From NCBI GenBank assembly GCA_038045945.1, contig JBBSXC010000001.1, positions 64,001 to 128,000 of the forward strand: a stretch of DNA of 64,000 nt, read 5' to 3'. The position numbers were made by a program, and so were the translations under genes. The notes beneath the pieces are model-generated. The model made no database searches. It was not told where the DNA came from and saw only the letters and a list, made by a program, of their open reading frames with translations. Numbering within the stretch: position 1 is the stretch's first letter; each line of letters starts with the position of its first letter. This DNA comes from Nanobdellota archaeon (GTDB lineage Archaea; Nanobdellota; Nanobdellia; Pacearchaeales; GW2011-AR1). Below, piece after piece: positions 18,568 through 21,371 of this stretch.

Positions 18568-19560
18568 TTATCTCTTAGTTTCAACACTATCAAAGAGAGC
18601 ACTCAAACTATCACCCTTAATTGTTCTGTAAATAGCTTCACCAAATAATGGAATCAGAGATATGGTTTCAAGATTGGGACTTCCACTGTTTACTAGGGTA
18701 TCAGAAACAAATAGTTTGTCTAGTGTAGAAAATCTTTCTAGTCCTGCGCTGAATAGTCCGTGAGTTCCATAAGCATAAACGCTTTTAGCCCCATTCTCTC
18801 TCAAAGATGCTTCAGTCATGGCTATAGTCCCACCAGTATCAATCATGTCATCAACAATTAGACAATTCCTGTCTTTAACATCACCTATTATTACAACTTT
18901 ATCAACAACATTATCTTTAAGTCTAATTTTGTCACCTATAGCAACATTCACTTCTAGACCGCTGGCCCTTAGCCTCTTAGCAAGACTTCTAACTCTTTTA
19001 GCCCCACCCATGTCCGGTGAAACAACAGCTAAATCCTCAAAAATTAATGGGTGTTTACTTCCCAGATAATCGATTAGTGTTGGAAAAGAATAAAGATTAT
19101 CAAAAGGAATATCAAAAAATCCTTGCATTGCAGGGTTATGAAGATCAACGGTCATTGCTCTGTCAGCATAAGTAGAGATCATCTTAGCAAGAGCTTTAGC
19201 ATTAACACTAACCCTACTTTCATCCTTTCTTTCTTGACGAGCGAAACGAGTATAAGGAAGAACAACATTTATTTCTTCAGGCGAAGAGAACTTTAGTGCA
19301 TCAAGGACAAAGTTAAGTTCTGTGTACCAGTCTGATGGGGACTTGTTAGAATCATGAATTAGATAACATTGCCTTCTGCGAACGTTCTTAGCAATACGAA
19401 GTTTGAATTCTCCATCCTTAAAGTCTTCTCTTTTGACAGTGACTAAGTCTACCTCAAAATCTCTTTTTGGCTTATATAGAAGGTGATTATAAACACCGAT
19501 AGCAAAATCGTAACCTTTACTGTTAGGATCGGCAATTATTGCAGCATCACCATTTTCCAT
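18568..19560 (-). CDS. prs: Ribose-phosphate pyrophosphokinase
   Basis: FKDGE, PYTRFARQER, VDLH, QGFFDIP, VSPDMGG, VDDMIDTGGT, THGLFS. Confidence 0.95.
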   Translation of the reverse strand: MENGDAAIIADPNSKGYDFAIGVYNHLLYKPKRDFEVDLVTVKREDFKDGEFKLRIAKNVRRRQCYLIHDSNKSPSDWYTELNFVLDALKFSSPEEINVVLPYTRFARQERKDESRVSVNAKALAKMISTYADRAMTVDLHNPAMQGFFDIPFDNLYSFPTLIDYLGSKHPLIFEDLAVVSPDMGGAKRVRSLAKRLRASGLEVNVAIGDKIRLKDNVVDKVVIIGDVKDRNCLIVDDMIDTGGTIAMTEASLRENGAKSVYAYGTHGLFSAGLERFSTLDKLFVSDTLVNSGSPNLETISLIPLFGEAIYRTIKGDSLSALFDSVETKR

Positions 19561-19659
19561 AAAATCTTTTGCCGTGTTAGCTATTTAAGGATTATTGGTA
19601 TAGAAAAATAAATGTATGATTATGAAAACACGGTGCATCTTATATAAATAACTGCTTTC

Positions 19660-20272
19660 TTTCTCCGTGAAAAGCGGAATGCTTTTTTTTTTGTTTGAAT
19701 ATGAAATTCTTTGCTGTAATTAACTTCTAAATCAAGCTTGTACCATATTTTAGAATGGTTTGCTTTCTAGTTAATAATTCTGCAAAGAATCATTTTTGCT
19801 TTTAGGATAAGCGGCTATATCAAGTTTGTACCCTGTTTTAGAAGGGTTTACTTTCTAGCTTATCACTTAAAGCTTCAAGAATGTTAATTCTTGAGACCCA
19901 AAAATCTTATAGATTTTTGAGTTTTTTTTTATCAAGTCGAGTTGATTATTATTTTAAGAATTCTTTATGAGGACTTCTTTGTTAACTTTTAGATATAGAA
20001 AATCTTTCTTATCCTTACTGTATAAATTATTTGTCCTAGAATTCTTGTCTGAAATCTAACTTTTCTTTACTTCTTATCTAAGTACCAGTAGTACTTAAAC
20101 TTATCTATTGATCACCCTTTACCATCTTTTTGCCACCCTCAATCCTCTAATTACTCAGATTTGTATTGGTGAAAGTGAAAGGTGATGATCTTTTGATTAT
20201 AAAACCCTGGAAGAGGCTTTTATGCACTTAAATTAGGTTGCACTAAGCCTCTTCTGGGTAAAAAGAGGTGAT
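19660..20272 (-). ncRNA. Candidate ~600-nt structured non-coding RNA or long leader
   Basis: No ORF of 60 aa or more; at least 8 stems; G-U pairs favour the minus strand; BRE/TATA at 20294-20307; boundaries approximate. Confidence 0.6.
19731..19858. repeat. Two 40-nt tandem hairpin motifs (19731-19770, 19819-19858)
   Basis: 35/40 identical; 4 of the 5 differences form two compensatory base pairs. Confidence 0.9.
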
Positions 20273-20293
20273 ATAATATGTAGGCAAAAGACC

Positions 20294-20307
20294 TATTTAA
20301 ACCTTTC
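20294..20307 (-). promoter_or_regulatory. Archaeal BRE/TATA promoter facing the non-coding region
   Basis: Minus strand GAAAGG-TTTAAATA, ~22 nt before the start of the first stem. Confidence 0.6.
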
Positions 20308-20393
20308 GATATTGTTATCATTACACAATGACAATATCTGCTCTTTATTTTTGACCCGTGGGTTTATAATATTTGTTTGTTTGTGTTTTATTG

Positions 20394-21371
20394 ATGGATG
20401 ATCAGCCCAAAATTGAGGTGAATAAAGTAGAGGTGAGTAGTACTGTTCTTGATAGTATGAATCAGGACGAGGTTTACGGTCTTCTTCTTGATAATGAGGT
20501 TGGTTGGCAGGCTATTCTTTATGATTTGATTAATACTGAGCGGCTTGATCCTTGGAATCTTGATCTTGTTGCTCTTACTCAGAAGTATTTGGAGAAGGTT
20601 AGGATTCTTGAGGAGGCTAACTTCTTTATTTCTTCTAATATTATTCTTGCTGCTTCTTTGCTTCTTAGGATTAAGTCTGAGATTCTTCTTGACCATTATA
20701 TTCCTTCTCTTGATGCTATTCTTTATGGTAAGAAGGATGAGGAGAAGAAGTCTTTGGAGAGGATTCATATTGATGAGTCGCAGCTTCCTTTGATTTATCC
20801 TAGGAGTCCTATGCCTAGGAACCGTCAGGTTACTCTTTCTGAGCTTGTTAGTGCTCTTTCTCATGCTATTAAGACTGAGAATAGGCGTATTCGTAAGGAG
20901 CTTATTATTAGGTCTGCTAGGCGTGAAACTGATATTGTTTTTCCTAAGATGAAGATTCGTATTCAGGATCGTATTAGGCAGATTTATGCTAAGATTCTTT
21001 CTAAATTCCAACAAAAGAAGGAGCGTATTCCTTATTCTGATATTGCTTCTGGTCGTGAGGATCGTATTGCTGGTTTTTTGCCTGTTCTTCATCTTGATAA
21101 CCAACAGAAGGTTTTTTTGCAGCAGGAGGCTCATTATGAGGAGATTTATGTTTGGGTTTACAAGCATTATAAGGAATTGAATCCTCATGTTGTTTCTGCC
21201 GAATTAGAAGAGGTTGATTCTTCTGAGATTGCTAATCACGAGCAACTTGAAAATTTTGATGCTCAGGAGCAGGAAATTATTGATGAACTAAACAAGTCTA
21301 GCAAGCTTTCTGATAAGACTGGTTTTGATAATCCTTTAGGTAATTTGCTTAGTGAATCGGGTGCAGAATAA
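20394..21371 (+). CDS. scpA: Segregation and condensation protein A (kleisin)
   Basis: LDPWNLDLVALTQKYL, ASLLLRIKSE, VTLSELV, FLPVLHL. Confidence 0.9.
   Translation: MDDQPKIEVNKVEVSSTVLDSMNQDEVYGLLLDNEVGWQAILYDLINTERLDPWNLDLVALTQKYLEKVRILEEANFFISSNIILAASLLLRIKSEILLDHYIPSLDAILYGKKDEEKKSLERIHIDESQLPLIYPRSPMPRNRQVTLSELVSALSHAIKTENRRIRKELIIRSARRETDIVFPKMKIRIQDRIRQIYAKILSKFQQKKERIPYSDIASGREDRIAGFLPVLHLDNQQKVFLQQEAHYEEIYVWVYKHYKELNPHVVSAELEEVDSSEIANHEQLENFDAQEQEIIDELNKSSKLSDKTGFDNPLGNLLSESGAE

Follow-up and report, generated by a model that had tools for sequence, protein, structure and literature searches.

Twin hairpins with compensated helices in the spacer upstream of a PRPP synthase gene: a putative orphan structured intergenic RNA element of a Nanobdellota archaeon

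Tandem aptamer architectures are found in the glycine riboswitch and in the guanine-PRPP aptamers of ykkC subtype 2a. Repeated hairpins are likewise the mark of the CsrB/RsmZ-type small RNAs, bacterial RNAs that titrate proteins or act as scaffolds. Archaeal H/ACA RNAs carry an ACA (ANA) box directly 3' of the lower stem, together with a two-stranded pseudouridylation pocket. The locus described here lies in a window of 64,000 nucleotides (the whole stretch of DNA that was analyzed) from a Nanobdellota archaeon, and it shares something with each of these systems. As in tandem riboswitch aptamers, two adjacent modules lie upstream of a metabolic gene on the same strand, and their helices are retained through compensatory change; unlike those aptamers, the modules share no core across species, match no Rfam family and do not recur beside a given gene; conservation within the spacer is lowest in the supposed sensor, and the gene has an adjacent promoter of its own. 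The resemblance to CsrB/RsmZ-type RNAs lies in repeated hairpins that display the same loop sequence within one short non-coding stretch, but here there are only two modules, in an archaeal host, with no sequence relation to those RNAs and with an RNA that is itself putative. Archaeal two-hairpin H/ACA guides offer a similar layout: their tandem hairpins measure about 65-85 nt, and in each of them the lower stem leads through an internal loop to an upper stem that has G-A juxtapositions and is capped by an apical loop. The present hairpins differ in having no ACA/ANA box, almost no 5' pocket strand (in hairpin A) and a G-A arrangement that is not K-turn-like. Finally, two similar imperfect palindromes in direct orientation within about 170 nt recall the palindrome-associated elements derived from IS200/IS605, although here there is a single locus, no transposase was found and the searches returned no other copies.

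The genome that contains the window is small (0.85 Mb, or 847 kb, in 7 contigs; 35% GC; completeness 93%). Within the window the genes prs and scpA are divergent, with hisS also nearby, and the spacer between them, 812 nt without open reading frames of at least 90 aa, is the largest gene-free gap of the 64 kb, the runner-up being 583 nt. No stop-free frame longer than 48 aa is present on either strand of 19612-20372, and no small frame is conserved in the alignment of this spacer with that of a relative of the same genus (G001). At gathering thresholds, Rfam models matched eight tRNAs in the window and nothing else; between 19500 and 20450, matches with E up to 10 were three in number and at the level of chance, the best scoring 19.5 bits against a cut-off of 96 bits. 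The features of the locus are as follows.

18568-19560, minus strand: prs, the PRPP synthase gene (Pfam Pribosyltran_N, Pribosyl_synth and Pribosyltran)
19590-19581, minus strand: TATA box of prs, CCTTAAATAG; 30 nt separate its first T from the ATG at 19560
19603-19692, strand not assigned: block between hairpin B and the prs promoter, 77% identical to G001 (E 4.7e-19)
19705-19791, probably minus strand: hairpin B, about 87 nt, with an outer stem, a partly paired internal loop and the apical module 19727-19770
19798-19873, probably minus strand: hairpin A, about 76 nt, with an outer stem of about 14 pairs and the apical module 19815-19858
19876-19893, strand not assigned: small 7-bp hairpin adjoining hairpin A; G001 has a hairpin in the same place with changed arms
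19896-19929, strand not assigned: A/T-rich hairpin of 12 bp, with a T9 run after it in plus-strand reading
20201-20272, minus strand: small-RNA gene of about 72 nt, 330 nt from the hairpins, with a strong BRE/TATA promoter at 20308-20293
20373-21371, plus strand: scpA (Pfam SMC_ScpA)

Hairpins B and A are built around two copies of one module. A repeat search returned a direct repeat of 49 nt (19727-19775 and 19815-19863; 84% identity) with a spacing of 88 nt, and the 44-nt core copies within it, B at 19727-19770 and A at 19815-19858, are identical in 38 of 44 columns (86%). The six core differences fall in minus-strand columns 9, 15, 24, 26, 34 and 41. Columns 9 and 34 change together from U-A to C-G and columns 15 and 26 from C-G to A-U, which gives two compensated pairs; of the remaining two differences, one (column 24) is in the apical loop and the other (column 41) in the lower internal loop. 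An earlier note on this DNA had counted five differences between copies of 40 nt, four of them forming two compensatory pairs and the fifth lying in the loop; the pairs and the loop position are confirmed, and the count is correct over 40 nt, the 44-nt core adding column 41 as a sixth. The core has 24 paired and 20 unpaired positions. When six substitutions were placed at random on it in 500,000 trials, at least two compensated pairs arose with P=0.00135, and at least two compensated pairs together with no broken pair with P=0.00046.

The flanks outside the core are unrelated between the copies, and each copy is nonetheless closed by a helix of its own, as the earlier note had also proposed. 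In copy B this is a stem of 9 bp (ATTCTTTGC, 19706-19714 with 19782-19790), a length of flank helix that occurs with P ~0.0015 at random positions of the genome. In copy A the sequence GATAAGC at 19806-19812 pairs with 19858-19864 as part of a longer stem, 19798-19812 with 19858-19873, that comprises about 14 pairs with two small interruptions; its longest uninterrupted flank run, 6 bp, has P ~0.09 at random genome places and is not rare alone. Two asymmetric internal loops, each of 2 nt opposite 4 nt, interrupt every copy, and they are the same in both.

For the stretch that spans both hairpins (19700-19880, 181 nt), the minus-strand fold has -44.8 kcal/mol and z=-4.46, which none of 200 shuffles equaled; the plus-strand fold has -44.2 kcal/mol and z=-2.84, equaled by 2 of 200. 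In the equivalent stretch of G001 the z-scores are -5.64 (minus) and -2.60 (plus). Every pair in both hairpins of the window is Watson-Crick, so the hairpins alone carry no strand signal; the 12-bp closing stem of G001, in a fold read by eye, contains two G-U pairs, whose plus-strand counterparts would be C-A mismatches. The z-scores of the window and of G001, these G-U pairs, and the minus-strand orientation of the small-RNA gene in the same spacer together suggest that the putative hairpin transcript is probably on the minus strand. A promoter matrix of the lineage, made from 13 small-RNA promoters, gave no score of at least 5 bits beside the hairpins, and only weak TATA-like candidates are present there. 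One of these, CTTAAAATAA at 19958-19949 on the minus strand, would start a transcript near 19927, and U-runs lie downstream at 19608-19604; such a transcript would stop within the conserved hairpin and U-rich block, 19692-19603, ahead of the prs promoter. In a related strain with a net deletion of 50 nt (X8), the same candidate promoter would place the start about 6 nt before hairpin A.

Of the 13 sequencing runs listed as containing this DNA, none is an RNA run; variation among close strains was read from contigs of depth ~2 in four DNA runs from other studies. In one contig of run X8 (record 8) the region of hairpin A, 19793-19875, is covered with a single difference, and 31 other letters stand in place of 19876-19956, with loss of both the small 7-bp hairpin and the terminator-like hairpin at 19896-19929. 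In another contig of that run (X8 record 7), 19647-19761 is covered with 13 differences and 5 gaps, 3 of the 13 differences being unlisted and possibly located near the ends of the aligned piece; 7 substitutions and 2 deletions fall in 19700-19726, against one listed substitution in the part of the core covered, 19727-19761. The loose end of this contig, 26 letters read by eye, appears to contain the rest of a copy-B-like core followed by a copy-A-like flank, with one extra base in the upper internal loop and with A-A where the 5' GA stands in the window. If that reading is right, this strain would have one hairpin instead of two, its helices would be kept while further changes accumulate in the internal loops, and the loop bases taken for tandem G-A would not be conserved. 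The internal loop that the earlier note read as tandem GA pairs is thus altered in a related strain (on one low-depth contig). In the minimum free energy fold of copy B, G4-U41 and A5-U40 pair and the GA is bulged.

Comparison with G001 places these hairpins in the least conserved part of the spacer. The gene order of small ribosomal protein genes, prs, spacer and scpA is retained in that genome, and the spacer is likewise about 810 nt long. Alignment of the two spacers reveals conserved blocks at 19581-19712, which contains the prs TATA box, a hairpin, T/U runs and a second TATA-like motif, and at 20196-20300, with little similarity between them. G001 is without hairpin B, has unrelated hairpins at the position of hairpin A and differs from the window by an insertion-like difference of about 90 nt. 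The conserved blocks therefore lie outside the hairpins, the opposite of what is seen in a riboswitch, whose sensor is the conserved part. The 5' outer arm of hairpin B (19706-19714) is homologous to G001 sequence and overlaps the conserved TATA-like block, so the stem may owe some of its conservation to something other than the hairpin. Absence of the module from G001 and its apparent single copy in one strain imply that it is either dispensable or very young.

The module is most likely an orphan, lineage-specific structured intergenic RNA element, itself putative. More specifically, and with confidence somewhat short of even, we take the twin hairpins to be a species-level structured non-coding RNA that bears a duplicated binding module for a protein or RNA partner; its transcription, its strand and the existence of the partner are all presumptive. 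Compensated pairs, independently formed outer stems, a core kept against diverging flanks and asymmetric loops all argue for selection on a folded single strand, and the presence of the same asymmetric loops in both copies fits such a strand better than a symmetric DNA operator. On this view, a protein or a second RNA would dock at the duplicated 44-nt module and would make contact through its apical loop and its A-rich internal loops. Against this reading, the covariation comes from two copies and one or two strain variants on depth-2 contigs, and so reflects very few events.

The main rival explanation involves no RNA role, and we regard it as unlikely but as deserving serious consideration. 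Template-switch correction of quasi-palindromes and inverted repeats can yield paired changes without selection, and the twin hairpins could be quasi-palindromic DNA that arose in an AT-rich spacer by local duplication and template switching. Such DNA would either be neutral or act as DNA, for instance by insulating, by stopping transcription in both directions between the promoters or by binding a protein. The confinement of the module to its own lineage, its differing copy number among close strains, the swapping of nearby hairpins by indels and the different hairpins at the same place in G001 would all be expected of such DNA, which would also owe its paired changes to templated mutation, and the conserved TATA-like block may explain in part the outer-stem arm at 19706-19714. 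What tells against it is that the core has changed much less than its flanks, whether the two copies or the related strain is considered, that chance would have to account for two independent outer stems, that retained asymmetric loops are unexpected for a symmetric protein operator, and that a spacer of about 810 nt has been retained in a streamlined genome of 0.85 Mb.

The position of the hairpins, 146-313 nt upstream of prs, raises the question of whether they act on that gene; the distance from 19706 to the ATG at 19560, earlier put at about 150 nt, is 146 nt. The TATA box CCTTAAATAG of prs is identical in sequence and spacing in G001. Short matches to the prs promoter stretch (25-32 nt, 88-96% identity) are also present in three further relatives. 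The rule that transcription starts 30 nt from the first T of the TATA box predicts the conserved 5' end of the small RNA in 13 of 14 loci and, by eye over 38 upstream regions, fits mature tRNA 5' ends within a few bases (tRNA-Cys, 31 nt). By this promoter geometry, the prs mRNA is most likely leaderless, or nearly so, and made from its own promoter. The gene itself is patchy in the lineage, being found in 4 of the 26 genomes searched (own genome counted), and the protein is 57% (G001), 39% and 34% identical in the three relatives that have it. The two of these other than G001 have upstream intergenic distances of 35 nt (G011) and 59 nt (G037), and the module is absent upstream of all three other prs genes.

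It is in this setting that a cis-acting upstream transcript, or a long prs leader, has to be judged. Such a transcript would end at 19603-19692 or read into the prs promoter, and it would control the gene either through transcriptional interference or through a protein that binds the twin module. The minus-strand order of hairpins, conserved hairpin with U-runs and prs TATA box is what this arrangement would produce; both prs-bearing genomes of the genus fold strongly here, and the spacer of about 810 nt is absent from neighborhoods without prs. We nevertheless consider a role of this kind improbable, because G001 swaps the sensor part and keeps the platform, the reverse of regulatory leaders, because the prs TATA box stands at a leaderless distance, and because the prs genes of G011 and G037 have merely 35 and 59 nt upstream.

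Searches for relatives of the module were made at increasing distance. Within the genome (847 kb), with up to 10 of 40 substitutions allowed, no copies were found besides the adjacent pair. A covariance model of the core, built on the two copies and scoring 70 bits on them, found no credible match in 100 relatives (best 23.4 bits, E 0.029) or in 150 family genomes (best 23 bits, E 0.038); given the number of genomes searched, the best of these foreign scores are within chance, and in the 14 weak matches inspected loops and stems were never retained together. The same model gave no match at the three other prs loci (G001, G011 and G037) and a single one, with E 0.65, among 19 loci near homologues of the neighboring small RNA or conserved block. 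BLAST of the 181-nt stretch against 60 relatives returned short AT-rich chance matches only.

Pattern searches extended this comparison to 185,579 species genomes (one genome per species), a collection from which, as from the others scanned, records of the window's own genome were possibly excluded. A strict pattern gave no match there. A pattern with loops and junctions fixed and stems left free gave 60 stretches across unrelated bacteria and archaea, in which the number of stem pairs peaks at 3-4 of 9, as by chance, and reaches 9 of 9 in none; the best has 8 of 9 stem pairs and is a single sequence shared by two Bacillus records. In metagenome contigs, a pattern designed for close relatives matched 37 stretches, none of them homologous, one having 5 of 5 inner pairs and no outer helix. 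Viral contigs yielded 4 and 9 pattern stretches (13), none credible, and a best covariance-model score of 19.8 bits on preselected DNA. Neither the covariance-model search of relatives nor the pattern search of the metagenome, the comparisons by which the earlier note would have its module judged, thus produced a credible match or a recurring downstream gene, and by these searches the module is found only in its own organism and close strains. The accessible portions of the literature on DPANN riboswitches and on non-coding and structured RNA describe no such element.

The same searches bear on the origin of the pair as a relic of a small mobile element, either the ends of an IS200/IS605-type palindrome-associated element or a MITE. 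Two similar imperfect palindromes in direct orientation and close together, and a difference of about 90 nt from G001 that looks like an insertion, are features that such a relic might leave. The earlier note had named copies elsewhere as the sign of such an element, and none were found in the genome, where only the two are present with up to 10 of 40 substitutions allowed, or in relatives, metagenome or viral contigs. No target-site duplication was seen, the outer stems are inverted and not direct repeats, and the genome, 93% complete, has neither a Y1 transposase (Y1_Tnp) nor a TnpB-type domain; a mobile origin is accordingly quite improbable.

The proposal that drew attention to this locus was of a duplicated ligand- or protein-binding module that resembles tandem riboswitch aptamers. 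Half of it stands, in that there is a duplicated hairpin with compensated helices, and a riboswitch function is not supported, given the lack of any homologue found beyond the organism and its close strains, the different hairpins of G001 and the separate TATA box of prs. Metabolite-binding aptamers in tandem that control PRPP synthase would account for two similar modules with compensated pairs upstream of, and on the same strand as, a gene of nucleotide metabolism. We regard them as very improbable: Rfam yields no match even with E relaxed to 10, the covariance model finds no homologue among 250 related genomes, loop-anchored patterns find none in the 185,579 species genomes, the metagenome or the viral contigs, the three other prs genes of relatives are without the module, and the internal-loop bases differ in the related strain while prs has its own promoter. 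A new archaeal tandem riboswitch would be notable; the claim fails on comparison. A narrower version, which we likewise hold to be a long shot, is that a very young, species-restricted tandem aptamer or protein-operated switch might belong to a minus-strand transcript that either terminates at the block before prs or continues past it; were it true, a DPANN archaeon would adjust its PRPP synthesis through an RNA sensor that has no relatives. A decayed CRISPR mini-array of two repeats, suggested by a palindromic repeat of about 44-49 nt and a spacer of about 39-44 nt, is scarcely credible, as the repeats are only 84% identical and form an extended hairpin with internal loops unlike CRISPR repeats, the inter-repeat spacer pairs with the outer flanks, and the genome has no Cas1 and no Cas12f/TnpB-type domain.

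Several known structures were also considered and rejected. The K-turn consensus links a canonical to a non-canonical stem by a 3-nt bulge that precedes, on its own strand, tandem sheared G-A pairs; here the 5' strand is unbulged, and the sole bulged bases (U-W) come after the G-A of the 3' strand. The fold of copy B, moreover, prefers G-U and A-U at these positions, and the 5' G-A reads A-A by eye in X8 record 7. For an H/ACA RNA, no ACA occurs within 3 nt after either lower stem on either strand, and the internal loop of hairpin A has 0-2 nt on its 5' side, hence no 5' pocket strand. Neither C nor D boxes of a C/D box RNA were seen. A replication origin is contradicted by the sole Cdc6_C match, which is on another contig (C4), and by a cumulative GC skew that climbs steadily across the locus with no turn. 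A divergent RNase P or SRP RNA hidden in the spacer is ruled out, since both genes were located elsewhere, on contigs C4 and C3. The RNase P RNA (C4:2325-2672) scores 49.4 bits against an Rfam gathering threshold of 84, and the SRP RNA (C3:162915-163175) 84.1 bits against 96.5; both are under threshold, and standard annotation would therefore miss both.

Whatever the function of the twin hairpins, their remaining value is as a marker that the unusually long spacer of a streamlined DPANN genome is rich in RNA-type signals, and of these the conserved small-RNA gene at 20201-20272 is a better lead than the hairpins themselves. DNA matches to its block, 20196-20300, are present in 83 of 101 relatives, and a covariance model of the small RNA finds it in 110 of the 151 high-quality genomes that were sampled phylum-wide; both counts include the genome of the window. 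Its promoter consists of CGAAAG, one base and TTTAWAWA, about 22 nt before the 5' tail, in 13 of 14 aligned loci. The tail, AUCACCUCUUUUU, is invariant; after it come a 12-pair stem, in which one pair covaries, and a U-run. Promoter and U-run are conserved across relatives. We take the tail to resemble the 3' end of 16S rRNA. The RNA occurs in 1-3 copies per genome, often of about 50 nt and sometimes in tandem, and adjoins scpA in 10 of 12 loci, divergently in 9. Rfam holds no family for 20201-20272 at E up to 10.

The other elements of the spacer are of more restricted distribution. Besides the hairpin of CACGG (19629-19633) with CCGTG (19665-19669), the block at 19603-19692 contains a plus-strand T10 run, a U-rich minus-strand stretch and a second small hairpin, whose arms are changed in G001; at full length the block was not found in the other 99 relatives. 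It may terminate the hairpin transcript or form its 3' end, act as a bidirectional terminator or be a small RNA of its own. The A/T-rich hairpin at 19896-19929, with U5 within its 3' arm on the minus strand in addition to the T9 run on the plus, is terminator-like both ways. Just upstream of scpA, G001 has three tandem units of about 63 nt (L038 3090-3280, read by eye), each bearing a AAAAATCT...AGATTTTT hairpin that resembles window 19896-19922. A palindromic motif at 19930-19950, TATCAA and TTGAT separated by 5-6 nt, is kept both in G001 and in the 31-letter replacement of the X8 strain although its surroundings are altered, and may be a candidate protein-binding site.
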